From: a virus
Lineage: Duplodnaviria > Caudoviricetes
Direction: 5' to 3' (one strand)
DNA length: 30,239 bases
IMG/VR virus record: IMGVR_UViG_3300032295_000988
Location: 1-30,239 of that record
Under the pieces are notes generated by a model, which was not told where the DNA came from, searched no databases, and saw nothing but the letters and a program-made list of their open reading frames with translations. Shown here one piece after another: positions 1-30,239 of the stretch; position 1 is the first letter of the stretch; every line of letters starts with the position of its first letter. The translations under genes and the position numbers were made by a program.

Positions 1-123
1 AGTGCCGCGTATGGCTCCGGTGTTGGCCATCTTGTCTATGACTTCTACCAGGTTGCGTTTCACAGCCAACATGGCTGTGACTTCAGCGCCAGACGCATCC
101 AGGATGTAGGGTTTGAGTCCTGG
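1..123. repeat. Terminal direct repeat, copy 1 (circular assembly overlap)
   Basis: Bases 1-123 are identical to 30117-30239, and the portal reading frame continues through the junction. Confidence 0.97.
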
Positions 124-1026
124 GTCAAGATTGTCAGGCATGGCAATGATTGATCCTGCGCCAATGCCGGCTGCTGTTTCATTGGTCTTCACAAGACTGG
201 GGTGACCATCAATTCTAATGCTTTGTTCTATTTCGCTGTTGATGTTGTAGATCATTCGCTGTGTGTCAGCAATGTCCACAATGTCACTGGTGCCAATGCC
301 ACGTATGGGTGTGCGTTGATTGTAGGCACACACAGCAGGAATAAAGCCCAGGCCATTTGATTCTGTGTTTGAATAGTTAATGGTGCGCTTGTCAATGTCT
401 GTAACAGTTGTGACCACACGGTCAGGATACCATTCCTTGATGGTTCGCAGACTGTCATTCATTTCTTCAATGTATTTGAGATAGATCAATTCATAGCGAC
501 CATTGCGCTGACGTTGGTATGACCAGTCCAGCACGTTCAGGGGTGATGCCATGCTGAGATAAGGTCTCACACCTGCAGCAATTTCTTCTGCACGAGTCTG
601 AGCACTAATGTTGGGTTTGGCCACTACAATCCAGCAGTGTCCAAACACACTGGCCCAGGTGGCAACTTCTTTCATGAAGTTGTTTAGACTGCGGCCATCA
701 AAGTCACAGTCTTCCAGGAAGTCCAACACTTCTACTGAATTCTCTAGACTTCCAAATTCTCTGTCGGGTTCTTTACGAAACAAGAAACTGTTGTAGACCG
801 AGATCACACTGTTGCAATGATTGTCTAGGCTGGTGGCCTGCAGTCGTTGATTGTAGTCCAGTTGTGTTTCCAATTGATACTGTGTGAGGTTAGCACCCTC
901 GCGATAGTCATCACCGCCCAGGTAACTTTCTAATAGATACTTCCAACGTGCTTGATAGTTTGTGTAGAGTTCCTTCTCGCTCATTACTGCGGCAAGTTGT
1001 TCGTCCACTGTTTGCATTACTGTCAT
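1..1026 (-). CDS. Portal protein, N-terminal 342 codons (continues at 30116..29604; about 512 aa in total)
   Basis: Absent from the ORF track because it runs off the edge. Manual translation from ATG 1026 gives MTVMQTVDEQLAAVMSEKELYTNYQARWKYLLESYLGG...FMKEVATWASVFGHCWIVV...GLGFIPAV...GTSDIVDIADTQRMIYN. SPP1 gp6-like portal motifs, directly downstream of terL, in frame with 29604..30188. Confidence 0.9.
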   Translation of the reverse strand, partial: MTVMQTVDEQLAAVMSEKELYTNYQARWKYLLESYLGGDDYREGANLTQYQLETQLDYNQRLQATSLDNHCNSVISVYNSFLFRKEPDREFGSLENSVEVLDFLEDCDFDGRSLNNFMKEVATWASVFGHCWIVVAKPNISAQTRAEEIAAGVRPYLSMASPLNVLDWSYQRQRNGRYELIYLKYIEEMNDSLRTIKEWYPDRVVTTVTDIDKRTINYSNTESNGLGFIPAVCAYNQRTPIRGIGTSDIVDIADTQRMIYNINSEIEQSIRIDGHPSLVKTNETAAGIGAGSIIAMPDNLDPGLKPYILDASGAEVTAMLAVKRNLVEVIDKMANTGAIRGT

Positions 1027-1027
1027 A

Positions 1028-2305
1028 TTAAATCCTTTGTTTGCGTGCCTGACCCTGTGGGCTAGGACCTATGCCGTGCGCCCAACGCTGTGGGGGCTGG
1101 TATTCTACTTCTCGTCTCACTGGCCACACATAATCAAAATAATAACGTGCGGCATCTGTAAGGTGATCATAGCCTGAATCTTTGTCTGGCTGACTGGTGC
1201 CTGACTTGTAATTGTGTCGTTCCAAACACTCTATCAATCGTCTACACTTGGGGTCAACAAAGAATCGTCGTTGACCACTTGCTGAACACAGCATACTATT
1301 TACAGCGTTGACTCCATCACGAACAGGGTTGTGGGCTGAGGGAGCCTTGACAGTAAAGCCGGCGTTTTGTAGGATTGACAGATCCGTGGCACCACCTGCT
1401 GATGTTTTGCGTTGTCGTGATGCTGGGTCAGGATAGCACCAGATTCTGCTGCGGTCACTTCGTGGATACCGTTGCAGAAGTTCCGCCACCATTTCTTGTG
1501 TGTTACTAGAATACATTTCGATTTCATCAATGGCCCAGACATCATCACCCTGCCTTGCAAACACCACAGCACTCATGGGATCAATGTTGAAGTCCATGCC
1601 CACTGCTATCAGTTGTGGCACTGCACCTGTCCAAGGCTTCACATTGTGCATGCGATCAAAACTATACCACACACGGTTGCCGGCTGTGATAAAGTTGGCT
1701 TCGAACTCCTGTTGGAATGTGCGTTCATCCAACAAGGCACGTGCTTCTGCTACTTCACTGGGCGAAACAAATCCGCCTTGCAGTGTGGTAAACTGCCATG
1801 AGGCCCAGTGTTCAGGATCCTCCCGGGGCATCTGATATAGGTCATAACTCCAGTTGCCTATGCCCTTGGGTGTGCCACAGAACAAGGCATGGCCCTGTGT
1901 GTCGGCCAGTGTGGGTCTCAGGACTTCGTAAAAGGCTTCCTGATCAATGTCCGCAAATTCGTCCATGACAAGAAAATTGATAGCGCGACCGCGCAGGCTG
2001 TCAGCGTTCTCAGCACCTTTGAGGCTGATCTCTGAACCATTTCTAAGATATATTGTAAGTTCGCTTTCATTGCATCGCTCCGTCCAGTTTAGGTCTTGTA
2101 GTCTATGTTTGAGTTTGCGCCAAACAATGCCCTTGGCCATTCTATAACTGGGGGCAACATACCATACAGTTTGATTGGGTGGGGCGGCATAACGTGCCAT
2201 TTCTCTAATGGCCAAAGTGGTCTTGCCAAAGCGTCGACCAGTAATAAGTGTGCGAAATCTATGTGAGTCTTTAGCCACCTGGGCCTGTGCGGCACTGAGA
2301 CTCAT
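1028..2305 (-). CDS. terL: Terminase large subunit
   Basis: Walker A GRRFGKT, Walker B LVMDEFA, GTPKG coupling motif, RNase H-like nuclease residues GMDFN and DHLTDAARY. Confidence 0.97.
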   Translation of the reverse strand: MSLSAAQAQVAKDSHRFRTLITGRRFGKTTLAIREMARYAAPPNQTVWYVAPSYRMAKGIVWRKLKHRLQDLNWTERCNESELTIYLRNGSEISLKGAENADSLRGRAINFLVMDEFADIDQEAFYEVLRPTLADTQGHALFCGTPKGIGNWSYDLYQMPREDPEHWASWQFTTLQGGFVSPSEVAEARALLDERTFQQEFEANFITAGNRVWYSFDRMHNVKPWTGAVPQLIAVGMDFNIDPMSAVVFARQGDDVWAIDEIEMYSSNTQEMVAELLQRYPRSDRSRIWCYPDPASRQRKTSAGGATDLSILQNAGFTVKAPSAHNPVRDGVNAVNSMLCSASGQRRFFVDPKCRRLIECLERHNYKSGTSQPDKDSGYDHLTDAARYYFDYVWPVRREVEYQPPQRWAHGIGPSPQGQARKQRI

Positions 2306-2664
2306 TTGAGATCATCATCCCGCCAGGGCAAGGCACGTGGTAGATCCACTGTGTGCTGTTCTTCAGGACGGCCAATGATTCTGTCCCACACAGCCACGAA
2401 ACTTTGAGCATCGCCTGAATCTCTAGCCCGCACTAACTGTGCCCAGGCAGCGTTGTGCAGTTCAGTGACCCATTGTGTTTGGTATTGCTCCACCACGGTC
2501 TTCATGGCCTGCTTCATGCTCTTGCGTTTGGCACGTGCTTCCATATGAGCCGTGCGTTGTTCTTCTGTGAGAGTTTTGAGCCAGTCCGCATAGGGACTTG
2601 AGCCAGGTTCCCAGCGATGCACTTTGAGATGGTTGGCCCTGGTGGGCTTTTTTTCTAAGCCCAC
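2302..2664 (-). CDS. Probable terminase small subunit
   Basis: Immediately upstream of terL with an ATGA overlap. Helical protein with C-terminal WDRIIGRPEEQ, resembling the DR-x-x-GKP motif of many TerS proteins. Confidence 0.6.
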   Translation of the reverse strand: MGLEKKPTRANHLKVHRWEPGSSPYADWLKTLTEEQRTAHMEARAKRKSMKQAMKTVVEQYQTQWVTELHNAAWAQLVRARDSGDAQSFVAVWDRIIGRPEEQHTVDLPRALPWRDDDLK

Positions 2665-2844: not shown

Positions 2845-3022
2845 CAGCCATATTTACCACCTTGATAGTTGCGCGGTGGGTTTTGGCTGGTTTTGTGTCA
2901 GGAAACTCCAGGGCAATGGCCTGCAGGATCACTTCCAAGGCTGCTTCACGACCATGTGTTCTGGCCAAGCGTTGTATGATACTTTGTATTCTCAAACGTT
3001 CCATAAGTTTATTTAGGTCCAT
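2816..3022 (-). CDS. Hypothetical protein
   Basis: Coupled to the upstream gene by a TAATG overlap. Alternative start at 3004 behind a TAAATA box. Confidence 0.6.
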   Translation of the reverse strand: MDLNKLMERLRIQSIIQRLARTHGREAALEVILQAIALEFPDTKPAKTHRATIKVVNMADESTKTLDR

Positions 3023-3387
3023 TATGCCACCACCTCCTGCACTTGATCCATTTCGTCAAAGAATGCATCCACTGTGCTGTCCAGTTCAGGATTGAGTTTA
3101 TGTTCAGCACACCACGTGAGCCATATGCTTTCTCTTGTGTCAAAATCCAACAAGCGATATTGATACCAACTCAAGGGCCAGGTTCTCTTGGTGGCATGCA
3201 AGGTGGGCTCTGCTGGCAGTTTTTTCTTTGTGGGTTGCACCTTGCCTTCAGAAATCTTTTGGTATTCATTTGGGCGTGTTTCACAACGATTCACAATAGT
3301 GCTTTTGTCCACGCCGTGTGCTCTAGCGGCAGCGGCTGCACCCGTGAAGTGTCCCAAGGGTGTCTTATACGTGTAAAGTTTTGGCAT
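3022..3387 (-). CDS. NUMOD1-like helix-turn-helix DNA-binding protein
   Basis: N-terminal YKTPLGHFTGAAAAARAHGVDKSTIVNRC resembles the NUMOD1/IENR1 HTH module. Confidence 0.6.
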   Translation of the reverse strand: MPKLYTYKTPLGHFTGAAAAARAHGVDKSTIVNRCETRPNEYQKISEGKVQPTKKKLPAEPTLHATKRTWPLSWYQYRLLDFDTRESIWLTWCAEHKLNPELDSTVDAFFDEMDQVQEVVA

Positions 3388-3406
3388 TGCAATCTTTCAA
3401 AAGGGT

Positions 3407-3471
3407 GGTGGGCACGTCAGGGTCGCCCACCGTCGACCTGGAAGCGATAAATGTCACTAAATCGCCCTGAC
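3407..3471. promoter_or_regulatory. Structured intergenic element (pseudoknot or alternative pairings)
   Basis: GGTGGGC 3407-3413 pairs with GCCCACC 3425-3431. GTCAGGG 3416-3422 pairs with CCCTGAC 3465-3471, crossing the first stem. Inner hairpin GCGAT/ATCGC. Confidence 0.55.
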
Positions 3472-3479
3472 TATTCGTT

Positions 3480-3848
3480 TCACAACAACGAGTTTTCTTT
3501 TAGATACACACGCATTTCACCCATGGCCTGTTTGTAGGCTTCATAATGGCGTTGTTCTCTTTCTCTTAATGCTTTCAATTCTTCCGTGGTAAAGCGATAA
3601 GCAGAAAGATCAATATCAAAATACCGTTCAGCCCAGTCAAGACTTTCTGGATCTTCACGATTGATCGTCACACTGTTATCGCAATCATCTGGATCAAGCA
3701 TGAGAATCTGCAGCCAGCGTGGACCATAATCTGCTATGGTTGCCAACACAACTTCTCGTTCTGTGCCTTCGTGTCCATAATTTGATTCGCCACCACCATA
3801 TTCTGCCAGTTTGGAAACATACAAAGTCCAATCAATAATTTGTGTCAT
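3480..3848 (-). CDS. Hypothetical acidic protein
   Basis: ORF 3480..3941. Start reassigned to ATG 3848 behind a GAGGA RBS; 3881 is an alternative. Confidence 0.7.
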   Translation of the reverse strand: MTQIIDWTLYVSKLAEYGGGESNYGHEGTEREVVLATIADYGPRWLQILMLDPDDCDNSVTINREDPESLDWAERYFDIDLSAYRFTTEELKALREREQRHYEAYKQAMGEMRVYLKENSLL

Positions 3849-3877
3849 ATTATCCTCTTCAAGTGTGGTTGATGTGT

Positions 3878-4063
3878 TCATTTTGGATTGTCCATTTGGT
3901 TGTAGACACGCTGTAGCAGTGCCTGTTGAGCACACTTCCAAACAGCAGCCTGGGGATTGGGATTGTCACTGTCCAAGCGGGTCATCTGAACAATGCGTTC
4001 AAGATCTGCCAACACTGCTTGTCCGTTCACACTGTCAAACAATTCACGGTAATTGGGTTTCAT
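3878..4063 (-). CDS. Bbp19-like small phage protein
   Basis: Y-x-x-LF-x-S-x-x-G-x-x-VL-x-DL pattern (YRELFDSVNGQAVLADL). Overlaps its upstream neighbour by ATGA. Confidence 0.6.
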   Translation of the reverse strand: MKPNYRELFDSVNGQAVLADLERIVQMTRLDSDNPNPQAAVWKCAQQALLQRVYNQMDNPK

Positions 4064-4653
4064 TTGGAGTCCTTTGCGATGTAGTAATAATTGGCACTGT
4101 CAGTGCGTAGCCATTTCGTGAGTTTGGGGGCAGCATTGCCAACACCTGCTTGAATCAAGCCTTGCACAGCAGCCTGCTTGCTGGCAAACTGGCCATACGG
4201 TGTTTGTATGGGCTTGCACTTGCTTTGTCTAATGTTTTCACATTGTTCTGGTGTCATCTTGCGTCCTTGGTTGCTTTTTCGCAAGCCAGCCAGGCCCAGC
4301 AGTTGTTGGAAAATACCGTAGACAAATCGCTCTTGTTCAGTCCACGGGCGTCCAGGACGAGTGCGATTGAGTTTGCGGCCCTTTCTATTTTGTGCATTTG
4401 CACGAATGCGTTGCAAATGAGTGTCACTGAGAGTGCGTCCTCGGTAGGCTTCACTGCGTTGCTTTCTGGCTTGGGGATTGGCAGCCCACCACGCCAGCAA
4501 TAGTTGTTGATGGCGTTCACGCCACTCATCTGGATAGTGCCATTGCGGGTCGCGTGTGCCTGATGGGCGGCTGTGTGCTGCCGCAGGTGCGGGCGTGAGC
4601 GTTGCATCCAACCAAGACAGATCGTCGTCACCAAAATTGTAGTTGTCAGTCAT
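4060..4653 (-). CDS. NUMOD3/NUMOD1-type DNA-binding protein with no nuclease domain seen
   Basis: Repeats GRTLSDTHLQRI and GRKMTPEQCENIRQS are NUMOD3-like; C-terminal IQTPYGQFASKQAA is NUMOD1-like. Start at MTDNY (4653). Confidence 0.6.
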   Translation of the reverse strand: MTDNYNFGDDDLSWLDATLTPAPAAAHSRPSGTRDPQWHYPDEWRERHQQLLLAWWAANPQARKQRSEAYRGRTLSDTHLQRIRANAQNRKGRKLNRTRPGRPWTEQERFVYGIFQQLLGLAGLRKSNQGRKMTPEQCENIRQSKCKPIQTPYGQFASKQAAVQGLIQAGVGNAAPKLTKWLRTDSANYYYIAKDSK

Positions 4654-4655: not shown

Positions 4656-5486
4656 TCACACCTTCAAAAAAGGAGCACAATTGGCTTGCCAATCTGTGGG
4701 ATCTGCATTGATCTCAGCCGCAATCTTTTGGGGCAAACGCAGATCCAAGGTGTTGATGTCATCCAAGTTTTGCAACAAGAACTTCAACAATGCCAGTTTC
4801 TGATCTGCTGTGATTGCAGTGCGTGTGTCTCTGGCCAGATAGTCGTGATGCACAACCATGTTGAACACCTGTGCAAACTTGCGTTCACGAGTGTGCCAGC
4901 CCATGGGCCAGTTGGTGGTGCGACTGTAGATAGCCGCCATGTGCTGACTGCGACGACTCTGACGCCCTGTGTTCATGGTGATGTTGCTACAAATGATCAA
5001 GGTGCCATTGTAGACAAAGTCACTGACCACACTGCCAGCAATGATGGGTTTGATACTGCTCTCATAACTCACACGACGGTTGTCTGGGTCAGTGGCAGCC
5101 TTGACAAAACTCAAGCCCATCTCGTTCTGAAACACATCATCACAGTCGTCCAGCACCAAGACCTGTCCCTTGCGACGATACAGATACAACAAGTTGAACA
5201 ACTGCAAAGGCGTGATGTGGCCTTTCACAATCTTGTAGTCCTCGCCTTCTGTCAAGCCTGCGGTGTTCAAGGCTTGTGCTACCACAAAACTCTTGCCCAG
5301 GCCTGGGGGACCTTGCAGGATAGCGTTCTTGTGTGTGCCTTTCAGCACCTTGCTCACAAACTTTTCTGTGCGTGTTTGGTATGCTTGCACATCAGCAATC
5401 TGTTCTACCAGTGCTGGTGTGAAGATGGGATCAGCAATGATCTCTGAATAGTGATCAATACTGCTGGGGATGTTTGCTTGTTTCAT
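4656..5486 (-). CDS. AAA+ family ATPase
   Basis: Walker A GPPGLGKS, Walker B LVLDDCD, sensor-1-like IICSN. Has its own sigma70 promoter. Confidence 0.85.
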   Translation of the reverse strand: MKQANIPSSIDHYSEIIADPIFTPALVEQIADVQAYQTRTEKFVSKVLKGTHKNAILQGPPGLGKSFVVAQALNTAGLTEGEDYKIVKGHITPLQLFNLLYLYRRKGQVLVLDDCDDVFQNEMGLSFVKAATDPDNRRVSYESSIKPIIAGSVVSDFVYNGTLIICSNITMNTGRQSRRSQHMAAIYSRTTNWPMGWHTRERKFAQVFNMVVHHDYLARDTRTAITADQKLALLKFLLQNLDDINTLDLRLPQKIAAEINADPTDWQANCAPFLKV

Positions 5487-5546: not shown

Positions 5547-5575
5547 AGTATAGCACAATACCAATTTGTGGTCAA
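5547..5575 (-). promoter_or_regulatory. Sigma70 early promoter P1
   Basis: TTGACC-17 bp-TATACT with TG extended -10, followed by a 9-bp 5' hairpin (5518-5540). Confidence 0.85.
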
Positions 5576-5579: not shown

Positions 5580-5849
5580 TTAGTGCATGCTCTGAAAATA
5601 CACAGCGTCAACCACAGCACCTTCTGTCATCACAGTCAGCACCACACGACTTTGAGCACCAATCACCATCACAATGCGAGTGCCGGGTATGGTGCAATAC
5701 CAAGATTCAACAGCACCATTTTTGGGGCATGTGTAGCGTCTATTGAGTCGGAATGCTGTGCTAATGTTCACTTCGTCCCTTGTGGTAATATCAGTTTTAA
5801 GACGTTGTTGCAAGCGTTGTGCGGCATGATAACTGAATAATACTTTCAT
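5580..5849 (-). CDS. DUF4258-like (BECR-fold) putative RNase/toxin
   Basis: FSYHAAQRLQQR at the N-terminus and RIVMVI...VVLTVM at the C-terminus. Start MKVLF at 5849 behind AGGAG. Confidence 0.55.
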   Translation of the reverse strand: MKVLFSYHAAQRLQQRLKTDITTRDEVNISTAFRLNRRYTCPKNGAVESWYCTIPGTRIVMVIGAQSRVVLTVMTEGAVVDAVYFQSMH

Positions 5850-5912
5850 CTGGTGCTCCTGTTCGTTTCGTTTCGTTTCGTTGTATGGGCTGTTTTTTGA
5901 TCCCATACAAGT

Positions 5913-5941
5913 ATTATAGCAAAAGGTGAATTTATGGTCTA
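5913..5941 (-). promoter_or_regulatory. Sigma70 early promoter P2
   Basis: TAGACC-17 bp-TATAAT with TG extended -10, followed by the hairpin TTGTATGGG/CCCATACAA. Confidence 0.8.
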
Positions 5942-5948
5942 CCTTTAA

Positions 5949-5975
5949 AATAGCCCTACAAAATGTAGGGCTATT
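5949..5975. terminator. Perfect 12-bp inverted repeat (terminator or protein-binding site)
   Basis: AATAGCCCTACA-AAA-TGTAGGGCTATT, between the stop of 5985..6197 and promoter P2. Short T run on the minus strand. Confidence 0.55.
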
Positions 5976-5984
5976 GTGTGGCTT

Positions 5985-6197
5985 TTACGCCACACTGGCA
6001 GTGAGTTCTGCGGCTTCACGCAGGGTCATTTCTGGGAACTCATCTGTGAGATACTGACGATACTCATTCATGGCTGTGCCAATCCAACTTGCATATTGAT
6101 GCTCGTTGAAGTGCTTTCGCACATCAGCAATATCCTCAAAGTTGCCGCTGTGTGCTCGGCTGGTTGCAAATGCATGAAAAGAAAGTGCTTGTGACAT
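5985..6197 (-). CDS. Hypothetical early protein, 70 aa
   Basis: AAGGAG RBS and its own sigma70 promoter. Confidence 0.8.
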   Translation of the reverse strand: MSQALSFHAFATSRAHSGNFEDIADVRKHFNEHQYASWIGTAMNEYRQYLTDEFPEMTLREAAELTASVA

Positions 6198-6232: not shown

Positions 6233-6261
6233 AGTATAGCATCAACACCATTATTGGTCAA
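6233..6261 (-). promoter_or_regulatory. Sigma70 early promoter P3
   Basis: TTGACC-17 bp-TATACT with TG extended -10. Confidence 0.85.
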
Positions 6262-8281: not shown

Positions 8282-8309
8282 GCCCCCATACACGCGATAT
8301 TGGCCAACT

Positions 8310-9019: not shown

Positions 9020-9075
9020 TGTGGTTGTGTCCTCGTGTTGTATTTAGTAAATGTCAAAATGCCAGTTTGATTTTG

Positions 9076-12802: not shown

Positions 12803-12803
12803 G

Positions 12804-17221: not shown

Positions 17222-17231
17222 GGTAATCGCC

Positions 17232-20494: not shown

Positions 20495-20506
20495 ACAGGA
20501 TCCTTG

Positions 20507-21732: not shown

Positions 21733-21737
21733 TGTTG

Positions 21738-24700
21738 TTACCTTCTACTGTTGGGTAAATTTCGTCTGCCTGCTTCGCTGAGACTGAAAATTAAACTGGG
21801 ATCACGTGCCAACAAACTGGCAAAACTACTGGCATCCACAGCGTTGATGTTGTATGTGACATTGGTGCCCATGGGTGTTACACTAGCAGGGCCACCAATC
21901 AATTCAGGTCCGGCTTCACCTGCAATACCAAATCGGCCTTGTGGTATCATGCCACCGTTGGCAAAGAATCCAGAGAACAGACTCTTGATACCGCCACCAA
22001 TGGTTTCCAAGATGCCGCCACCGCCCATGCTGCTGCTGCCAGGACCACTTGAGAATATGCTGCCCACTGCTTTGGCCACGCCACTCACAGCACCACCAAT
22101 GCCACTTGCAATTGATCCAATGGTTTTGCCAATGGTGTTGATTATGCCACCGCCACTGCTGCCGCTGTCGCTGCTTTTGCTGGGACTGAATATGCTGCCA
22201 ATGGTCTTGCCAATGGTGCCTAATATATTGCCACCACCGCCACCACCACTGCTGCTGTTGCTGCCTCCCATGCCAAACAAACCCTTGATGGTGTCAAACA
22301 AACCACCATTGGCTGAGGCAATGGCAGATCCCAATCCTGTGCCGCCATCAGCCAAGACCACATACATGGGATTGCTGGCGCTGCTGCCAATGCTGGCTGT
22401 GCCACCAAACAAGTTGCCCAGACCCAGGGCTTTGCCCAGGCCTGCTATGGTTTCTCTGATCTGACTGCGCAGGAGTTCTTCCAACATGTTGCTCACAAAC
22501 AGTTTGAAGTTGAATTCACCAGTTTTCACAAAGTCCACAATGGCATCTTCTAGACCATCTGTGAATGTTCTAAACAATCTTCCGGCTGTGGCAGCAGCAT
22601 CACCAGCCGCATCAGCATAATCTTGAAAGGCACGTTGCCAACCAGCAGCAAATGTTCTGCTGCTTTCGTATTGTTTCTTTTGTTGAGCAGCCAGGCGTTT
22701 GCTGCCTTCTTCGGCTACTTTGTAATATTTCTTGACTTCATCAATGTCCAAGGGCTCACCACGACGAGCCTCTTCAGCACGTATGGCTTCTTTGGCACTG
22801 TCTCTGGCCGCGGCTGCAATGTCATAGTATTTTTGTTCTATCTCACTCATGGTGCTCTTGGCCATGGTGTCTTGCAAGCGTATGAGTTCTTCGTTGAGTC
22901 TGACTTCTTCGCGTTTCTGGAACTGCACAAATTCAAACTTGCGTTGTTCCTGGATCAGTTCACGTGTGCTGGCTTTGACTTTGTCAATGCCTTCTCTAGC
23001 GGCTGCATAATAACCTTGTATTTCTTCAGCATTGAGCGTGGCTCCACGACGTTGTTCTTCGGCAGCAATTTCTGCTTCAGCACTGGCCCGGGCTGCTGCT
23101 TCAATGTCCAGATAGGCTCGAGCCACTTCAGGCAGGAACACACTGGCTGTTTGTTGTGTGAGACTGTTGAGTTCACGTTGTAGGTCTGTGGCTCTTGTGA
23201 TTGTGAACAGTCTTGCTTGTTCCACAGCCTGTGCTTTGACGTTCAAGGCCACACTGTTTTCAAGACTGGTCTTCTGCACATTGAACAAGATTCTGGCAGC
23301 ATCAATTTGTTTGTTGATAGCGGCTTCAGCACCACTGGCTCGTTCTTCTTTGGTGAGATTGCGTTTCTGTTCTCTAAGTTGAGCAATCACACGCTGATAG
23401 TCTTCATTGGCGGCTGTGAGTGCATCTGTGAGTTGTCGTTGTTGAGCACTGGCACCAATTAATTTTGTGTCAGTGTCAAGATTGGCAACTTTGGCTTTGT
23501 TCTGGCGTCTAAACTCTTCTGTGGTGTTGCGTATGGTGGCCAGCAACTTGTCATAAGAGGTGGTATCTACAGTTCTGATGTCTCGACCGGTTTCAATTTT
23601 CTTGCCTGCTTCGGCAACTTTTTTCTGTGCCAGGGCCAGGCGTTCACTTTCTAATCTTGCTTCACGTGCTTTGTCTACCACTATCTGAAAAGGTGTGCCC
23701 AGACCCACTCCAGCAATGGTCAGCAGGCCACCCAGATTAAGAATGTCAGCAATGAGTTCGCCAATGCTTTCTGTGACTCGTGCAAACACATTAACAGCCA
23801 CATCACCAAATCCATCAAAGATTGTCATGGCAGCAAACACACCAGATGTCAGCACACCAATCAGCACAGCCGCAGCACGTAGGATTCTCAAGAAAGGTGA
23901 GTTGGCAGCAAAGATACCTGCGGCACCTGCTAGGCTTGAGGCCTTGCCAAGATTGGCTGTGGCTGTGGCAGCACCTGTGGCTGCTGTGCCAACGGCTTTG
24001 AACACAGGTGCCAGCGTTCGACCCACCTTCATCAGGGCATCAAATCCTCGGCCTAACACACCTATGCTTTTGACCACCAGCAACAGGCCAGCGCCCACAG
24101 TGCCGCCTACTAGAATTGCTCCCAGTGCTTGCAATGCAACCACAAGGCCTCGGGTGCCGTTTTCGCTGGCAGTGGTGGCATCCAAGAATTTGGTCAGGGC
24201 TTCAATAGCAGGTCCAAATGCCTTGAGCACTGCTATCTGTAGATTGCCAAGACTTCTATCCAGTTTGTCTTGCAGTTGCGCAGCCTGCTCAATGTTGCTG
24301 GCATAGGCAGCACCTGAGCCAGCAGCCTCTCTAAGACTTTTGGCCAGGCCCTGTGCTGATGTGTCTACTGTGCGGAAACTTTTGCCAAACAAACTCATGC
24401 CCAGTGCAGCACGTTCACTGTCACTGGTGATGGTTCCTAGACCTTGAATCACTCGGTCCAGTAAGTCTTGTTCGCTGAGATTTCGCAAATCGTCCAGGCT
24501 CACACCCAGGCGTGCAAATTCATTTTGTGTTTTCTGACTGCCTTGTGCGGCTTCGTCAATGGTCAAGGCAAACTTGCTGACTGCTTTGCTGGCATCTTCA
24601 AAGCGACCGCCATTGGCCACCACAGCACCACGCAGTTCTTCTATCTTGGCCACACTCACGCCAGTGGCGCGACTTAGGTCTACCAAACTGTCAGCAAGAT

Positions 24701-24854
24701 TGATGGCCTGTGCTGCCAGAGCCCCAAGTCCAGCACCTGCCACCACTGTTTGCAAACCTCCAAATTTCTTGCTGAGTCCAGCAAGACCTGTTTCAAGTTT
24801 GGTCAGACTTTGTAGGCCATTGACCCGGACATTTACTGTTGCATCGTAAGCCAT
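21738..24854 (-). CDS. Tail tape measure protein
   Basis: 1038 aa, Ala-rich and helical, with hydrophobic central segments, a Gly-rich C-terminus and the FANGG...AGEAGPELI motif. Confidence 0.93.
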   Translation of the reverse strand: MAYDATVNVRVNGLQSLTKLETGLAGLSKKFGGLQTVVAGAGLGALAAQAINLADSLVDLSRATGVSVAKIEELRGAVVANGGRFEDASKAVSKFALTIDEAAQGSQKTQNEFARLGVSLDDLRNLSEQDLLDRVIQGLGTITSDSERAALGMSLFGKSFRTVDTSAQGLAKSLREAAGSGAAYASNIEQAAQLQDKLDRSLGNLQIAVLKAFGPAIEALTKFLDATTASENGTRGLVVALQALGAILVGGTVGAGLLLVVKSIGVLGRGFDALMKVGRTLAPVFKAVGTAATGAATATANLGKASSLAGAAGIFAANSPFLRILRAAAVLIGVLTSGVFAAMTIFDGFGDVAVNVFARVTESIGELIADILNLGGLLTIAGVGLGTPFQIVVDKAREARLESERLALAQKKVAEAGKKIETGRDIRTVDTTSYDKLLATIRNTTEEFRRQNKAKVANLDTDTKLIGASAQQRQLTDALTAANEDYQRVIAQLREQKRNLTKEERASGAEAAINKQIDAARILFNVQKTSLENSVALNVKAQAVEQARLFTITRATDLQRELNSLTQQTASVFLPEVARAYLDIEAAARASAEAEIAAEEQRRGATLNAEEIQGYYAAAREGIDKVKASTRELIQEQRKFEFVQFQKREEVRLNEELIRLQDTMAKSTMSEIEQKYYDIAAAARDSAKEAIRAEEARRGEPLDIDEVKKYYKVAEEGSKRLAAQQKKQYESSRTFAAGWQRAFQDYADAAGDAAATAGRLFRTFTDGLEDAIVDFVKTGEFNFKLFVSNMLEELLRSQIRETIAGLGKALGLGNLFGGTASIGSSASNPMYVVLADGGTGLGSAIASANGGLFDTIKGLFGMGGSNSSSGGGGGGNILGTIGKTIGSIFSPSKSSDSGSSGGGIINTIGKTIGSIASGIGGAVSGVAKAVGSIFSSGPGSSSMGGGGILETIGGGIKSLFSGFFANGGMIPQGRFGIAGEAGPELIGGPASVTPMGTNVTYNINAVDASSFASLLARDPSLIFSLSEAGRRNLPNSRR

Positions 24855-25150
24855 TATAGACCTTTCATGATTTGCGCAATTCTGCGACGTGCCCAGCGTT
24901 CAAATGGACGCAGGATACCTTGACCACGAGTTTGTGGACTCCAATTGTCTTCCAGGCGTTGTGCGTAGGGATAATTGGCTTCAATCCGGTCACCTGACAG
25001 CACTGTGCGCCTACGAGCATTGCCCGAACGTTTGGGTGTGAGCAAGCGAAACATTTCTAATGCTTGATCAGGATATGCGTCAAAACTTTTCTTGAATTTC
25101 TTAAGATCCTGAGAGGTTGTGTTGGTCACACGAATTGTGGTAGATATCAT
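24854..25150 (-). CDS. HK97 gp10-like tail completion / neck protein
   Basis: TPKRSGNARR...YPYAQRLE-x-x-WSPQ motif. Confidence 0.7.
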   Translation of the reverse strand: MISTTIRVTNTTSQDLKKFKKSFDAYPDQALEMFRLLTPKRSGNARRRTVLSGDRIEANYPYAQRLEDNWSPQTRGQGILRPFERWARRRIAQIMKGL

Positions 25151-25455
25151 TTTCTGGCTCCATTTGGTCGTCGTCTCGCAGAGGTGGGCGGATTGGCTCG
25201 CACCTGATCAATGCGTTGTTGCATTTGTTCCTGTGTGAGGTCTTCACGTCGCTCTGCTTGGATTTTCTTACGCTGATTGGGATCTTGTTCACGAGCCCAG
25301 GCACTGCCAATTTCCATACATCTCAAGTCCAGGGTGGTGCCTTGTGCCAGCACTTGACTGGGCATGAGATGATATCGTTGTGCAAGGTGATCCAGGGTCA
25401 GTAACATCATGGTGTCAGCGCGGAGCCATTGAGGGCGGCCGCCTATTACTTTCCC
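25147..25455 (-). CDS. Tail assembly chaperone, frameshift extension (gpT-like)
   Basis: The -1 frame is open from the slippery site: GGG AAA GTA ATA GGC...ACC ATG ATG TTA, joining ORF 25147..25410. Confidence 0.8.
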   Translation of the reverse strand, partial: GKVIGGRPQWLRADTMMLLTLDHLAQRYHLMPSQVLAQGTTLDLRCMEIGSAWAREQDPNQRKKIQAERREDLTQEQMQQRIDQVRANPPTSARRRPNGARK

Positions 25456-25742
25456 AAAAAATCTGTGATCCTGCCAATGGCCTTGACCAGGATGCCAGCA
25501 GGCACCATGGCAGTGTCAGTTATTACAGGTTGACCTTGTTCATCCAGGATCAAGGTTCTCACAAGGTCCAGCATCTGTCCGCTGTCTTGTTGTTGTGCCA
25601 CTGCCATACGCATGAACACATCCAGTGGTTGACGATCCCAGGTATAGAACTCCAGGGGTTCACCATATTCTTTGATGGTGTCTTCGTCGTCTAATGTTAG
25701 TTGCACCAGTTGTGGTGCTGCTGCTAGTGTTGATAATTTCAT
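25446..25742 (-). CDS. Tail assembly chaperone (gpG-like)
   Basis: Between major tail and tape measure genes; ends TTG GGA AAG TAA. Confidence 0.82.
   Translation of the reverse strand: MKLSTLAAAPQLVQLTLDDEDTIKEYGEPLEFYTWDRQPLDVFMRMAVAQQQDSGQMLDLVRTLILDEQGQPVITDTAMVPAGILVKAIGRITDFLGK
25449..25455 (-). promoter_or_regulatory. Programmed -1 ribosomal frameshift site GGGAAAG
   Basis: Same heptamer and phase (G GGA AAG) as lambda G-T, with an open -1 frame. Confidence 0.88.
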
Positions 25743-25745
25743 CTT

Positions 25746-25919
25746 TTAATCCTTTGTTCTTTCAATCAGTTGATTTAACACTGCTACAGAAAATTGCAAT
25801 CTGCTTTGTGCTTTGTTCACGTCGGCCTGCGCACAACGTAGTTCGTTTGTGGCCTTGGCCACTTCTGCTAACAAACTCAACAACAGTTGGTTTGTGGTCT
25901 TTGAATCTATTACTTCCAT
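25746..25919 (-). CDS. Coiled-coil protein, 57 aa (MEVIDSKTTNQLLLSLLAEVAKATNELRCA...)
   Basis: Manual translation; fills the gap and is preceded by TAAATA at 25934-25939. Confidence 0.7.
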   Translation of the reverse strand: MEVIDSKTTNQLLLSLLAEVAKATNELRCAQADVNKAQSRLQFSVAVLNQLIERTKD

Positions 25920-25948
25920 TGATCTCTTTCTAATATTTAGTATGATAC

Positions 25949-25992: not shown

Positions 25993-26457
25993 TTAAGAAC
26001 TGGTCACAGTGTAGTCGCCGTCAACTGTGATAGTGATAGGTGTGACCCACACAGGTGAGTCTGCACTCACAGTAGGTGCCAAACCAGTCACATATCCCGT
26101 GCCAGAGATTGTGACGCCGTCACCAATGAACAAACTGAAATCACAATAGGATTTGTTTTTGCTCAAGTTGAACACGCCCAACTTGGCCGCAGTGTTTGCG
26201 GTTGCTGCTGTATTGCCGAAGAATGTTGTTTCGTCCAACACAATGTTCATGTCCAAACTGTTTGTTGCAGTTGTGGCCACGTTTTTCTTACTGCCGCTGT
26301 CCAATTGTGTCCAGGTAAACACATCGTTTGAGTTGTTTACTGTGACGTCTTGTAGTGCGGGGAGACTCATGCCAGTATCAGCAGAGACGCCATCCACAAA
26401 AAGTGTTAATGTGACTTGACGGCCTGCAACGCCTGGACTTGGATTGATATAACTCAT
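25993..26457 (-). CDS. Major tail (tube) protein
   Basis: 154 aa, beta-rich; ISGTGYVTGL...ITITVDG; followed by a terminator and the chaperones. Confidence 0.85.
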   Translation of the reverse strand: MSYINPSPGVAGRQVTLTLFVDGVSADTGMSLPALQDVTVNNSNDVFTWTQLDSGSKKNVATTATNSLDMNIVLDETTFFGNTAATANTAAKLGVFNLSKNKSYCDFSLFIGDGVTISGTGYVTGLAPTVSADSPVWVTPITITVDGDYTVTSS

Positions 26458-26475
26458 TTGAATTATCCTTTTCTT

Positions 26476-26874
26476 TTAATTTACTATCAGTTGTGTGAAA
26501 CTGAATTCAAACTGTGTGATCTGTGCATCATTCTCTAGACTGGTTGTGACCTGTGTGGTTCTCTGGGTTACCCCTGAAATACCTGTGGTCAGCCGGGCTG
26601 CGGAAATCATTGCTATCAGAGCAGCAAGGTTTGAGGGAACTTGTTTTGCGTCTGTTGTGACATAGGCACGAACTGTGGTGATTTGATTCACCACACCAGG
26701 CCCATTCAACACATCAATAAGGGGTTCCTGACTGACTTGATCTTGATCCACATAGATACTCTTGTAATTCTTAACATACAAAGGCGTGCCATTACTGTCC
26801 CAAGGCAGTTCAGCACTGGGATTGAATCCCGTGATTTTGTTTGCGTTCAAATAAGCAAGAATTTCTGATCTCAT
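26476..26874 (-). CDS. Tail terminator / completion protein
   Basis: Size and position directly before the tail tube gene. Confidence 0.6.
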   Translation of the reverse strand: MRSEILAYLNANKITGFNPSAELPWDSNGTPLYVKNYKSIYVDQDQVSQEPLIDVLNGPGVVNQITTVRAYVTTDAKQVPSNLAALIAMISAARLTTGISGVTQRTTQVTTSLENDAQITQFEFSFTQLIVN

Positions 26875-27383
26875 CGCACTCTCCGTAGATTGTAAATGCC
26901 GGGCATTTTCTCAGCCGCGGTCACTGTGCCAGCACCATCAAAGTCATACCAATCGCCAGCAGTGATGAGTTCACCAAACAGACCATTATATTTCTGTTGG
27001 TAATACCCCATCTTCTTGCGTTCGGCTGTGTCTTCGTCACCAAAGTTGGCAATGTAAGGCAGAATATAATCATACAATGCATAGTAGCAACAAAGTTCTG
27101 TAAAGTCTTCACGACGATTCAAAATCTTTGCGGCATTCAACGGGGGTATGTCAGCAACATTGTTGATGGCATTGCCCGATGTATTCATTTGTAGATAATA
27201 ACTCTGCCACCAATCTGTGGCTCTTAACTGGCTCAATATACGTTGTGTGCTACGAATCAATGCATCATCAACATAGTCAGCAGAAAGGCCTTCATTTTGT
27301 TCGAACAGACGAGCATCCAAAGCCTCAACATCGCCTGATGTGGCAAAACTTAAGACTTCTGAGCCGTATTCAATGAAAGCCAT
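26871..27383 (-). CDS. Head-tail connector / adaptor protein
   Basis: Helical 170-aa protein immediately after the capsid gene. Confidence 0.65.
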   Translation of the reverse strand: MAFIEYGSEVLSFATSGDVEALDARLFEQNEGLSADYVDDALIRSTQRILSQLRATDWWQSYYLQMNTSGNAINNVADIPPLNAAKILNRREDFTELCCYYALYDYILPYIANFGDEDTAERKKMGYYQQKYNGLFGELITAGDWYDFDGAGTVTAAEKMPGIYNLRRVR

Positions 27384-27395
27384 CTTGACTCCCGA

Positions 27396-28247
27396 TTACA
27401 GTGCGGCGTCGCCGATGATCTTGACACCATGGCTGGCTTGCAGAATAGATGCGCCAGCAACAGCAGTCAGAGTCATATCGCTTGCGCGATTCATTGATTG
27501 ACGTGTGACTTCCATAGAGATGGAACCACGCATGGCGTGACCCAGAGCACTGCGTGTGAACACAGCACCAATAGAGTCCGAGTCAGTGTCGATGCTCAAC
27601 AAGCCAGATTCAAAAATGCTCACGCCACCGATAGTGGTGATGTAGAAGTCGGACAGCACACTGTTGCCCAGGTTGCTCAATGCAGGAACATTGGTCTGGC
27701 TAGAGTATGTGAGTTGTTTCTTGATGTTGTAGCAAACTTTTGGATGCAACACAGCAAAGAAAGGACCTGTCAGTTTGTTGCTGCGCAGAGTGGCAGCGGC
27801 CTGCAGGATTGAGTCAGCAGTTACTTCAGCACCAGTTGAACCAACTGATTGTGAGAAACTTGTGAACAAGTTGAACACTTGTGTGTCAATGCTTTCAGCA
27901 ATGGCACGGCCTGCTTGGTCACCCAACTGGCTCATGACATTCATGTAGGCACTATCACGCAACATGTCAGTGACTTGGTTGTAAACAACGTGTTCGCTGA
28001 GTGTGATGGTGGCTGATGTGGTGTTGGTAGCAATGATAGTTGCTGCTGCCTCATCAGTGATGTTCTGTGCTGTGACTGATGCCCATACAGGAACTTGTAG
28101 GACTTTACCAGTGTTGAGTGGTGCGTCGAACACAGTGACCAATTGACGAGCAATTGAGTTTTCGTAGGCAGCAAATTGTGCCTGTGTGACCAGCGGCGCA
28201 AACAGTTCACTGTTGATGCTGGTGTTATTATCGGTAGGATAAGCCAT
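27396..28247 (-). CDS. Major capsid protein (HK97 fold)
   Basis: 283 aa after the scaffold; GRAIAESIDTQV, AVLHP and GGVSIFES motifs; strong AGGA RBS. Confidence 0.9.
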   Translation of the reverse strand: MAYPTDNNTSINSELFAPLVTQAQFAAYENSIARQLVTVFDAPLNTGKVLQVPVWASVTAQNITDEAAATIIATNTTSATITLSEHVVYNQVTDMLRDSAYMNVMSQLGDQAGRAIAESIDTQVFNLFTSFSQSVGSTGAEVTADSILQAAATLRSNKLTGPFFAVLHPKVCYNIKKQLTYSSQTNVPALSNLGNSVLSDFYITTIGGVSIFESGLLSIDTDSDSIGAVFTRSALGHAMRGSISMEVTRQSMNRASDMTLTAVAGASILQASHGVKIIGDAAL

Positions 28248-28274
28248 GGATATATTTCCTTGTTAATTTAGATA

Positions 28275-28955
28275 TCAAACGCGACCGGCCTTGCGGGCTT
28301 CCGCGTAAAGTTTACGGACTTCAGGATTCTTCATATCCATTTTAGAGAAGTCCATGGGGCCTGTTGAGCCACCACGCACCATGCTTTGTGAATTTGTTGT
28401 GGCAGGTGTTGCACCAACAAAATGCGGATTCGAATCTAGGAACTCCCGCACTATGTCATCGACTCCAATGGGTGCGCCAGCGTCGTTATAACGCACAGCA
28501 CCTTTGCTGTCAACAACTTCTACATCGCCGTCACTGTTCAATCTCAAATGTGGCTGCAACAATGTTCTCACTTGGTCAGGATTGACCGCACGGTATTTTG
28601 CTGCTGCATTCAACACCGGAGTGTTGACTTTGTATTCTTTGATCAGTGCATCTCTCTTTTGGATTTCTAAATCCTTTTTTGCAGCAAGTTCTTGTAGAGT
28701 TTTCTCAAATTCGCCACGCTTGATCTGCTGTTCTTGTTGACGCTTTTCAGCCTCAGAACGCAGTGTGCGCAGTTCTTCTGGATCGCCCAGGTCTTCATAG
28801 GGTTTCAATAACTTTTTTTGCAGACTGCCCTTCATACGGGCCATCATGTCATCTACTTCCTGTTGACTGTAAGACTTGCTTGCGGTTGCCTGATTGTCAG
28901 TTTCTGCTGCGGCATCAGTTGCCTCTGGTGTTGCCGATGTTTGTGATGAGTTCAT
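28275..28955 (-). CDS. Capsid scaffolding protein
   Basis: YSQQEVD, coiled coil, AVNPDQV, FLDSNPHFV and a basic C-terminal helix. Confidence 0.85.
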   Translation of the reverse strand: MNSSQTSATPEATDAAAETDNQATASKSYSQQEVDDMMARMKGSLQKKLLKPYEDLGDPEELRTLRSEAEKRQQEQQIKRGEFEKTLQELAAKKDLEIQKRDALIKEYKVNTPVLNAAAKYRAVNPDQVRTLLQPHLRLNSDGDVEVVDSKGAVRYNDAGAPIGVDDIVREFLDSNPHFVGATPATTNSQSMVRGGSTGPMDFSKMDMKNPEVRKLYAEARKAGRV

Positions 28956-28987: not shown

Positions 28988-28995
28988 TATTTATA
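28988..28995 (-). promoter_or_regulatory. Perfect T4-type late promoter TATAAATA
   Basis: Exact match to the gp55 consensus, about 33 nt upstream of the scaffold ATG. Confidence 0.7.
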
Positions 28996-29058: not shown

Positions 29059-29141
29059 TTGCTCTCCTTTGGTGTGGGTATGTGAACAGTGCCAGGCACA
29101 GGTGTGCGTGGAGCACCGGGTAATCCGTTGCGTGGTTTCAT
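29055..29141 (-). CDS. Pro-rich micropeptide, 28 aa (MKPRNGLPGAPRTPVPG...)
   Basis: AGGAG RBS and ATGA overlaps on both sides. Confidence 0.45.
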   Translation of the reverse strand: MKPRNGLPGAPRTPVPGTVHIPTPKESK

Positions 29142-29446
29142 TCTATCTCTCCTAGTTGTCTTAATATGCTGCGAGCCCAGACCAGGCCTGCAGGTCCACC
29201 CCACAGCAAGTAGGCCTGTGTGCCTGGTGATTCAGTGCCAGGATCATAATAGGTCCGTGCCCTGCTGAGAAAACTATAGGTCCTGCGCACAGTGTCTAGA
29301 CTCACTGGATCACGTCCAGCAAACTGTCTTGCACGTGCCAAGCCCACTGCTGTGCCACCCTGGCGACTGGGTGTTTGTCGTGACCTCATGACCAAGCCAC
29401 GACGTGCGGCAGCAGCCATCTGTTGAGTGGCACGGTATGTGACCAT
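29138..29446 (-). CDS. Conserved head-associated basic protein
   Basis: ARRGL...GGTAVGLARARQ...TVRR...SF...AYLLWGG...W pattern, which I recall from phage head modules. Confidence 0.75.
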   Translation of the reverse strand: MVTYRATQQMAAAARRGLVMRSRQTPSRQGGTAVGLARARQFAGRDPVSLDTVRRTYSFLSRARTYYDPGTESPGTQAYLLWGGPAGLVWARSILRQLGEIE

Positions 29447-29604
29447 CAGCGTCTTCCGTCCGGTGATCTATAGCCAGCACGATAGGCAGCACGACCTTGC
29501 GCTGCGGCCTTTTCTTTGGCATCAGCACCGGTGTATATCTTACCGGTATCGCCCCAACGATAGCCCATCTTTCCATTGGGTCCAGGAACTCTCTTGACTG
29601 GCAT
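29446..29604 (-). CDS. Small basic protein, 52 aa (MPVKRVPGPNGKMGYRWGDTGKIYTG...)
   Basis: Manual translation; TAATG and TGATG coupling to both neighbours. Confidence 0.7.
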   Translation of the reverse strand: MPVKRVPGPNGKMGYRWGDTGKIYTGADAKEKAAAQGRAAYRAGYRSPDGRR

Positions 29605-30239
29605 TATGATTCCTCGCTGGCTTCTTCAATGGCATCTTCAATGCGGCCTTCCCAGGCTCTGCACCAATACACAGGGTTAACTGTTTCGTCCCACTTGCTA
29701 CAACCATTGGTGATTGCATCAAAGTATTCACAGTTGGCACAGTTCTCACCGGCAGGCACACCAGGTGTGGTGGCAGGCACATAGGCACTGGGCAGTCCGT
29801 CCTCATTGGTCAAGTATTTGGCAGGATTGTCCACGCCCAAATACTCCAACAACTTGTAGTCAATCACTTTGTAAACGCCCACATCTGTGGCAGTTTCTTT
29901 GGCCGTCTTCAACTGTGCAATTTCATTTTCAGTATCGCGAATGTTGAAACTGCCAGGATACTCAATGTGTCCGTCCCAGGTGGTGCCTTGATAGATAGCA
30001 AAGATTGTCCACAACTGTTCTTCTGCCAGTTCCAGGTTGTCGGCCTTTTCAGCCAGGCGTGCATTCAACAATTCAAATTCTGTTTGCAGTGCAATGCCAC
30101 TCATGGTTCTGGCTTCAGTGCCGCGTATGGCTCCGGTGTTGGCCATCTTGTCTATGACTTCTACCAGGTTGCGTTTCACAGCCAACATGGCTGTGACTTC
30201 AGCGCCAGACGCATCCAGGATGTAGGGTTTGAGTCCTGG
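29604..30239 (-). CDS. Portal protein, C-terminal part, with a HiPIP-like extension
   Basis: SGIALQTEFELLNARLAEKADNLELAEEQLW portal motif; in frame with 1..1026 through the terminal repeat. Confidence 0.9.
   Translation of the reverse strand, partial: PGLKPYILDASGAEVTAMLAVKRNLVEVIDKMANTGAIRGTEARTMSGIALQTEFELLNARLAEKADNLELAEEQLWTIFAIYQGTTWDGHIEYPGSFNIRDTENEIAQLKTAKETATDVGVYKVIDYKLLEYLGVDNPAKYLTNEDGLPSAYVPATTPGVPAGENCANCEYFDAITNGCSKWDETVNPVYWCRAWEGRIEDAIEEASEES
30117..30239. repeat. Terminal direct repeat, copy 2
   Basis: Identical to 1-123. Confidence 0.97.

Follow-up and report, generated by a model that had tools for sequence, protein, structure and literature searches.

The stretch of viral DNA described here, positions 1 to 30,239 of IMG/VR record IMGVR_UViG_3300032295_000988 (the whole 30,239 nt is called the window below), is probably the genome of a virion-complete satellite, a lake phage that carries its own head and tail genes but would need a large phage in the same cell, whose gp55-type sigma factor would turn on its late genes. 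We give this reading a probability of roughly 0.68. It draws on the gene content of the window, the placement of TAAATA boxes before its virion operons, the conservation of this placement throughout a clade of related genomes, the absence of gp55 homologues from that clade, and the matching promoter words and spacing found in jumbo phages. That the helper is a jumbo phage with a long gp55, of the kind of the 320-355 kb freshwater jumbo phages, is a proposition for which the sequences leave the odds about even.

The TAAATA Box in the Window

TAAATA occurs 11 times in the window. Nine copies lie at most 60 nt upstream of one of 44 hand-curated gene starts, a zone that takes up 4.4% of positions (binomial p 3e-11), which makes it the best hexamer; 14 words of the same composition score 25/145 upstream of the curated starts. 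For three of the curated starts, the choice was made in sight of the motif; when genes were called blind to it, 6/11 copies were near starts (p 2e-6, rank 2). The first-pass annotation of this DNA had named ten of the sites and proposed positional enrichment near start codons as a check. All ten are at the coordinates and on the strands that it gave, the enrichment was borne out, and one extra copy, at 1297, lies within the gene for the terminase large subunit (TerL). No shared -35 was seen by eye in the 40-nt contexts of the boxes, and the sigma70 scan lists none there.

The boxes that head the virion operons are all on the minus strand. The capsid operon is headed by a TATAAATA box (28988..28995), 32 nt before the scaffold start. 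The tail operon is headed by a box at 25934..25939, placed right after a terminator (25972-25954) and conserved in 9/9 clade genomes, and the fibre operon by one at 15589..15594, conserved in six of the seven clade genomes having that gene. Two divergent boxes stand back to back at 10822-10827 (minus) and 10836-10841 (plus), and a similar pair occurs in the relatives L035 and L038. Five further boxes are on the minus strand. The one heading a variable slot (9851..9856) comes just after a weaker member of a sigma70 promoter repeat family (9859-9888), and that at 9041..9046 lies 21 nt before a start at 9019. Two starts are near-leaderless: the box at 3010..3015, kept in L007 and L034, is 5 nt before an ATG at 3004, and the box at 2851..2856 is 6 nt before the ATG (2844) of a 58-aa ORF. 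The box at 10079..10084, in the last codons of a 182-aa ORF, heads no gene and is followed by about 135 non-coding nt and then a strong hairpin terminator (9942-9910); a late small RNA, with no Rfam match, is possible there.

Conservation of the Box in the Clade

The clade as counted here comprises 13 genomes: the window, 11 genomes of 25-32 kb found by capsid or ATPase searches (G001-G011; ten of them 100% complete, G009 86%) and DSL-LC06 from GenBank. The counts leave out two non-members brought in by the ATPase (G012, G013) and two partial records (G014, G015). All 13 share one plan, namely virion genes and a few small accessories. The box was enriched before starts in 12/12 near-complete relatives, ten of them at p<0.003 and two at 0.017 and 0.038. 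When the 12 relatives were pooled, TAAATA was avoided overall, with 204 copies observed against 371 expected. A box lies 30-63 nt before the scaffold gene in 12/12 clade genomes and in 0/2 pelagiphages, and one precedes the terminase small subunit (TerS) family in 11/12; it never stands directly before the major capsid protein, TerL or tape measure gene. Among 12 further partial metagenome loci, picked by length, eight were enriched at p<0.01.

Five small control phages gave no clear box enrichment (p 0.024-1.0). Two of the controls, HTVC111P and HTVC112P, share the head module of the clade and carry annotated lysozyme or peptidase genes; they were purified clonally, according to the available part of the report (10.1101/2019.12.14.876532). 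Outside the virion genes, the HNH family occurs in 11 of the 13 genomes, a zinc finger in nine, a membrane protein in eight, an ATPase in four and a NUMOD family in three, and no non-virion family is common to all 13, which argues against a self-made activator. The TerL tree is poorly resolved and cannot order gain or loss; DSL-LC06 groups with the pelagiphages in it at 94/95. A Ferritin/Dps-like gene lies between portal and scaffold in some relatives (G001:C1:20428-21033, G007:C1:9396-9845), 36-43% identical to copies in the jumbo phage G027.

Gene Content

A 123-nt terminal direct repeat closes the genome, which has 30,116 unique bases; IMG/VR places it in the class 'direct terminal repeats' and rates it 100% complete. 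Four pieces from metagenome run X1, which may be its source, cover positions 1-12,500 with zero differing letters. PHROG and Pfam matches recovered the virion set of portal, TerL, scaffold, capsid, tape measure, distal tail, tip and fibre. The closed genome and full head and tail gene set of the first-pass annotation stood. Its statement that recognisable regulators and enzymes were missing also held: comparison of 48 window ORFs with PHROG and Pfam, and of 30 with NCBIfam, turned up no sigma factor, polymerase, primase, helicase, integrase, repressor or endolysin.

A gp55 profile matched 0/17 clade records and 2/27 records overall, these being T4 and the 163-kb G019, and a five-sequence profile that included long jumbo sigma factors found nothing in six-frame translations of the clade. 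In G001-G011, 147 of 174 non-virion proteins of at most 450 aa were scanned in PHROG, 29 longer or boundary-crossing proteins having been skipped first; these 147 included HNH nucleases, methylases and fibre parts, and no lysin, primase, helicase, integrase or sigma factor. Among 80 of 106 metagenome loci, the two longest contigs (56.8 and 50.6 kb) were not host-flanked. Each of these contigs (L418/L420 and L436/L437) holds two tandem copies of a clade genome at 99.9% identity, which may be a concatemer or an assembly artefact. A search of genome contigs gave a single 5-kb contig in an actinobacterial metagenome-assembled genome, probably a binned virus.

Candidate Helper Phages

The exact early promoter of the window was found in about 480 viral-contig stretches, against 37 for a spacer longer by one base. 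From the first 80 promoter matches, 28 long contigs were taken and 27 searched; 11 encode a gp55-family sigma factor, including 5/6 of those at least 90% complete, and nine of the 11 sigma factors lie in frames of about 300 aa. In a 186-kb record that is 96% complete, the gp55 match (G029:C1:118336-118812) is in three pieces with internal stops, which may reflect a frameshift, an intron or an assembly error.

TAAATA is the top upstream hexamer in three jumbo phages, G027 (355 kb; 83/187), G033 (345 kb; 81/224) and G028 (320 kb; 74/159). The spacing also matches: an ATG follows the word after 4-7 nt at 96/570 jumbo sites and 22/204 clade sites, against 3/164 in G019 and 3/151 in pelagiphages (Fisher tests 6e-4 and 1e-3). 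G033 encodes a family-B polymerase, a clamp loader, SSB, a recombinase, a ligase, an endolysin and a holin. It also has TctC and a permuted tmRNA, from which we presume a proteobacterial host. Permuted tmRNAs are found in both G033 (L348:7900-8233) and G027 (L318:10318-10763), with about 30 tRNAs each; G027 has in addition a tRNA call with a CTA anticodon and an unusually long tmRNA tag. The G033 sigma factor (about 300 aa, phrog_12791) shares about 40% identity with the sigma factors of PA5oct and of Erwinia and Serratia jumbo phages. In the cultured relative CBB, ATAAATA is reported before structural genes, and the cited part of that report describes no gp33 or gp45 (PMC5259590).

Several window proteins have counterparts in these jumbo phages. 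The 83-aa membrane protein (11143..11394) has a counterpart in each of the three, with 30-39% identity along its length, the fibre repeat is 68% identical to a G033 fibre over 114 aa of low complexity, and homologues of the window's glycosylation cluster lie within 5 kb of each other in G033. LamG and glycosyltransferase scans gave no large-phage copy. DNA of the G033-type head module was present in all four runs examined, including X21, which has next to none of the window's words, so co-occurrence discriminates nothing. Taken together, the proposal of the first-pass annotation that late transcription is borrowed from a gp55-type phage gains from the clade conservation, the controls and the candidate helpers; its expectation of a T4-like helper needs amending, as the best match is to jumbo phages with a gp55 of about 300 aa and not to canonical T4 relatives.

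The HNH Protein and the Variable Slot

The most widespread non-virion gene encodes an HNH/PacI-type endonuclease of 115 aa (8310..8657, minus), which an iterated profile links to the HNH proteins of phrog_3377. The two clade genomes without this family have a different HNH protein. Between the zinc-finger and HNH genes is a slot that holds a minimal family-A polymerase or some other gene in the relatives and, in the window, a non-coding stretch of 535 nt (9020..9554) with no convincing ORF and a whole-stretch fold z of -1.8. This stretch contains the only two C-GNA-G mini-hairpins of the window, at 9113 and 9193, and we infer that it is a candidate replication origin. Next to it, an 87-aa protein (9555..9818, minus) has an ExoX-like C-terminal motif (PF20600 E 9e-5, below the cut-off), and on its other side a 121-aa ORF (8654..9019, minus) gives a weak lead to an OB-fold single-stranded DNA-binding protein (nearest named ESM Atlas clusters 0.83-0.84). 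Several small late proteins (window 8654-8680; the cluster 55 proteins of G002 and G005) end in an F-x-x-L/F-F-like acidic tail, which may resemble the C-termini that bind sliding clamps.

The slot protein of about 350 aa in G002, G003, G004, L022 and L035 has family-A polymerase motifs by eye and lies behind a TAAATA box. It belongs to a large unannotated family, with 1,868 relatives at E<0.001. Sequence searches against PDB, Pfam, PHROG and cultured phages were blank, and the fold alone revealed the family: in a Foldseek search the model (pLDDT 97.6), which has no exonuclease, came out similar to T7 DNA polymerase and Pol I (E 2e-5), and the VIA comparison gave Z 11.7 with rmsd 4.5 over 227 aligned residues for Klenow and Z 10.2 with rmsd 3.9 over 225 for T7 RNA polymerase. 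An extra N-terminal domain is present (G003:C1:8902-9945 = L118; L022:1946-3043; L035:1253-2389). By fold, the slot protein can be likened to TV-Pol, reportedly a minimal family-A polymerase. CcPol is a further polymerase of this minimal kind in the part of its description consulted here (PMC10061031), and the likeness is again one of fold, that of the relatives' protein of about 350 aa without exonuclease; the window does not have it. Since the polymerase is absent from the window and from 10/13 clade genomes, it is excluded as the general reader of the box. The first-pass annotation recognised no replication genes in the window, and the PHROG, Pfam and NCBIfam scans found none there; such an absence does not extend to the clade as a whole.

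A second family of 250-270 aa near the slot (G008:C1:9000-9809, G009:C1:22832-23650, G007:C1:1887-2630) has a low-complexity N-terminal half with GAA mini-hairpins, and is a possible initiator with an internal origin. From these exchanges we infer that the slot is a swappable replication slot.

The Early Module

Three sigma70-type promoters, all with TG and on the minus strand, precede the early genes: TTGACC-17-TATACT at 6233..6261, TAGACC-17-TATAAT at 5913..5941 and TTGACC-17-TATACT at 5547..5575 (repeat family D14). Strong promoters of this type occur in 3/13 clade genomes. Two small ORFs of 108 and 70 aa (5580..6197, minus) each lie downstream of their own promoter. Contigs from runs X3 and X10 jump from 5575 to 6295, promoter to promoter, so that the small-ORF cassette is deleted in other lake populations; the early genes are thus arranged in cassettes with promoters at their borders, and populations differ by the deletion or exchange of these cassettes.

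Downstream is an AAA+ ATPase of the T4 NrdC.10 family (4656..5486, minus; phrog_1250 E 3e-44, also by tblastn), an accessory gene found in 4/13 clade genomes and absent from the close relative L007. Its model (pLDDT 88.7) has a generic AAA+ fold with TM of about 0.5 to NorQ and RuvB. This generic fold and the loss in L007 led us to reject it as a core replication gene or initiator. It was also tried as a pointer to the helper, by way of a 42% homologue on a 224-kb contig that was not located. The module continues with further minus-strand ORFs (3022..4653): NUMOD-type DNA-binding proteins (4060-4653 and 3022-3387), a Bbp19-like protein (3878-4063) and a 133-aa ORF; PF25181 was matched within this group. 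The NUMOD/homing-endonuclease-domain family occurs in 3/13 clade genomes. L007 replaces most of the early module, ATPase included, which indicates that the module is exchangeable. Relative L096 (G014:C1:1845-4962) has two NrdC.10-family ATPase genes with NUMOD-type proteins after each. The idea that replication is borrowed has to be softened: host-sigma70 early promoters are present and some relatives carry the minimal family-A polymerase, so that replication may be borrowed only in part.

Other Features of the Genome

The minus strand carries all but one of about 44 genes. The portal gene begins at 1..1026 with its N-terminal part and runs over the circular join into 30116-29604, 512 aa in total (phrog_145 E 6e-42 and 4e-8); this length is supported by the open frame and by the 512-aa portal of L007. 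Its C-terminus (29604-29790) is a cysteine-rich HiPIP-like tail (PF01355 E 0.013, below the cut-off). The join, inside the portal gene, is formed by the repeat of bases 1-123 at 30117..30239. TerL (1028..2305, minus) matches phrog_2 and PF03237/PF17289, and its TAAATA is the sole gene-internal copy. The ORF at 2302..2664 (minus) is the probable TerS by position only, directly upstream of TerL; L037 has a different small protein at this position. A glycosylation cluster (6316..8347, minus) consists of a KpsC-like protein (7586-8347), a glycosyltransferase (6963-7601) and an FkbM methyltransferase (6316-6966).

The sole plus-strand gene encodes the CxxC-CxxC zinc-finger protein (10854..11357), and the membrane protein at 11143..11394 (minus) is a coiled-coil protein with a C-terminal membrane helix, XhlA/holin-like or GTA rcc01685-like. 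The fibre module (11682..15537, minus) contains a 173-aa adaptor, a 736-aa repeat fibre, a 109-aa virion protein and a LamG-like protein by PHROG and Pfam; the fibre had no match among cultured phages. The siphovirus-type tail block (15614..25919, minus) encodes tip and hub proteins, distal tail, a 1038-aa tape measure, chaperones and a 57-aa coiled-coil protein (phrog_5616, 2048, 1302, 1716; PF09718, PF13550). The head block (25993..28955, minus) has scaffold (28275-28955), major capsid protein (27396-28247), adaptor, tail terminator and tail tube (phrog_206, phrog_267, PF25209). Rfam and tRNA scans of the window gave no credible match, and PADLOC on 17 window ORFs gave no defence system and two weak partial matches. 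The virion set of the first-pass annotation was thus recovered, and what it had overlooked is the HNH-type endonuclease, the NrdC.10-family ATPase, the XhlA/holin-like protein and the three sigma70-type promoters.

Alternative Explanations

It is unlikely, in our estimate, that the window is an autonomous phage with a late activator of its own that the searches did not recognise (the zinc-finger protein, a NUMOD-type protein or a minimal single-subunit polymerase), with host-driven replication and with lysis by a small protein. Zinc-finger late activators such as P2 Ogr exist, the zinc-finger family is found in most of the clade, the family-A fold of the slot protein in G002, G003, G004, L022 and L035 is shared with T7 RNA polymerase (Z 10.2), and relatives with the same head module grow alone. 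On the other hand, the zinc-finger gene itself lies behind a TAAATA box and is absent from 4/13 genomes that keep the boxes, the NUMOD family and the polymerase are each confined to three of the 13 genomes and the polymerase is not in the window, and 24 family profiles compared with the gp55 profile reached an hhalign probability of at most 1.2%, from shallow alignments and with no positive control. It is also improbable that an identical box would be kept through repeated replacement of its reader.

A reading of the box by a host sigma factor, either an alternative sigma or a -10-only type of promoter in an uncultured host, with small and jumbo phages sharing it through shared hosts, appears quite unlikely. 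Near-leaderless starts are a host-dependent trait, and the shared fibre repeats, glycosylation genes and 83-aa membrane protein are as compatible with a common host as with parasitism. Against this, the word equals the late box of gp55 phages in the cited parts of PMC2988020 and PMC5259590 and is without the final T of the sigma70 -10 hexamer, canonical sigma70 promoters coexist with it in the window, and this reading does not account for the failure to detect lysins and replication sets throughout the clade. An archaeal TATA-box reading was dropped, since gaps of 4-7 nt to the start codon do not fit archaeal TATA-box spacing, nor do the coexisting sigma70 promoters.

Least probable is a facultative parasite with a slow lone cycle (sigma70 read-through, leaky late boxes, host replication) whose yield the helper sigma boosts: three consensus sigma70 promoters do face TerS, TerL and portal, with no more than a weak hairpin in the way, and some relatives keep a primase-like polymerase, but separate boxes stand before the capsid and tail operons, one of them right after a strong terminator, 10/13 clade genomes are without such a strong sigma70 promoter, and no endolysin was found in the window (PHROG/Pfam) or in the scan of G001-G011.

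Several results weigh against the satellite reading itself. Total TAAATA is not depleted in the window, with 11 copies against 5.2 expected under an order-2 Markov model. The stripped family-A polymerase is carried by 3/13 clade genomes, the window not among them. The profile libraries missed this real clade family, and about 15 window ORFs have no assigned fold; library silence is therefore not absence, and a divergent activator, initiator or lysin could escape them too. According to the available part of their description (10.1101/2019.12.14.876532), HTVC111P-type phages have no DNA polymerase and yet grow alone, so missing replication genes do not prove parasitism. No integrase was found in the window or G001-G011, and no host-flanked copy was seen. 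As to the helper, the contigs searched for gp55 had been picked by length, and the 4-7 nt spacing was found at 1/186 sites in cultured PA5oct (100 of 287 kb) and at 2/18 in an 18-kb T4 stretch, so that it does not cleanly mark long-gp55 helpers. Neither gp33 nor gp45 was identified among the scanned G033 proteins (under half of 431 called genes), and the window ATPase is 23-30% identical to the jumbo copies. At the DNA level, the best match of the window to any of four large phages covers 83 nt at 78%, and because similarity goes no higher, none of G027, G033 and G028 would be the helper itself; they are the best helper candidates, with no specific helper identified.

Proposed Mechanism and Meaning

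If the window is a satellite that depends on a helper's late sigma, its virion would inject DNA independently of the helper, and the host sigma70 would transcribe only the small swappable early module (the NrdC.10-like ATPase and small DNA-binding proteins). Having no integrase, the satellite could wait for a helper by co-entry or as a non-replicating circle. Upon helper infection, the helper late sigma would turn on the slot, the HNH gene and the virion operons. Helper enzymes would then do most of the copying of the genome, starting from the non-coding slot. Clamp loaders of T4 load the clamp at nicks, and the clamp activates late transcription, in the account given by the consulted part of PMC2988020; we therefore speculate that the clade-wide HNH protein may nick the satellite to engage both. 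Such a nick might also open the slot for copying. The HNH protein may instead serve in packaging or cut helper DNA. Progeny would leave by helper lysis.

In its wider form, the proposal is that these genomes belong to a family of siphophages, widespread in aquatic habitats, 25-32 kb in size and virion-complete, which would be the bacterial counterpart of virophages: near-silent alone, dependent on the late sigma of jumbo phages of 300+ kb, with a swappable replication slot (minimal family-A polymerase, other initiator or bare origin) and an HNH nickase that would enable them to load the helper clamp and replisome. From the sequences compared here, we regard this as a toss-up. If true, many 'complete' small lake and estuary phage genomes would be parasites of jumbo phages and not independent predators, estimates of host mortality would change, and the resistance of such phages to isolation would be explained. 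Such satellites would be invisible to finders keyed on missing capsid or tail genes, and bacteria would gain a third player comparable to the virophages, one that may hold epidemics of jumbo phages in check. The signature, a box before virion operons in a genome without gp55, is cheap to screen.

Comparison with Known Systems

In the open-licence literature, we found no published description of a tailed phage that has all its virion genes but relies on the sigma factor of another phage, and none is listed in the available part of a 2026 review (PMC13359090). DSL-LC06 (OR003941; proposed 'Nanhuiviridae', PMC10611076) and the HTVC111P-type pelagiphages have the same head module (capsid 33-35%, TerL 48-52%); the head genes in common with DSL-LC06 are at 35-52%. 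DSL-LC06 shows box enrichment (6/17, p 4e-5) and is annotated without any replication or lysis gene; promoters and helper dependence are not mentioned in the accessible text of PMC10611076. The pelagiphages differ from the clade in having no box enrichment, lysis genes and lone growth.

The late promoters of the T4 family, which use gp55, gp33 and gp45, have an A/C-TAAATA box that precedes virion operons, as in the window, and lack a conserved -35, of which the window showed none by eye, and the Aeh1-type a/gC variant of the box fits several window sites (both from the part of PMC2988020 consulted). The difference is that the window has the box on a genome without gp55, and that its best-matching helpers have a sigma factor of about 300 aa and no identified gp33 or gp45.

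Late promoters of P4 respond to the helper activator Ogr. P4, PICI, cf-PICI, PLE and the Acinetobacter phage Phanie depend on helpers and take capsids or tails from them, Phanie its tail, as given in the cited sections of PMC10690885 and PMC11476376. Most P4/PICI-type elements described there integrate and replicate with their own enzymes, whereas the window has all virion genes and no integrase or replicase was found in it.

The first-pass annotation called this arrangement the reverse of P4/PICI/PLE satellites, but the contrast does not extend to every known satellite, as MiniFlayer already encodes a capsid and is without primase (PMC10690885), and virophages use helper late promoters (PMC6723459), to go by the portions of these papers at hand. 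The Streptomyces satellites MiniFlayer, MulchRoom and Ando have their own capsid, portal and terminase, no primase and a large virulent helper, and MiniFlayer is, like the window, without integrase (available parts of PMC10690885 and PMC13587820). MulchRoom and Ando borrow tails and MiniFlayer has short fibres and clamps onto the helper neck in these accounts, whereas the window has a full long tail with a tape measure. The word 'promoter' is absent from the main texts of both papers in the form available. A tblastn search with the capsid against 50,697 phage records gave six matches, none of them a Streptomyces satellite.

The virophages offer a functional parallel. Sputnik, Mavirus and Guarani are small and virion-complete and have the late promoter of the giant helper upstream of their genes; they are thought to use its transcription machinery, and some keep a polymerase of their own, as some clade members do (cited part of PMC6723459). 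They differ in their eukaryotic hosts and unrelated capsids, and here the borrowed part would be a sigma factor acting on the host RNA polymerase; the likeness is one of functional analogy and not of membership.

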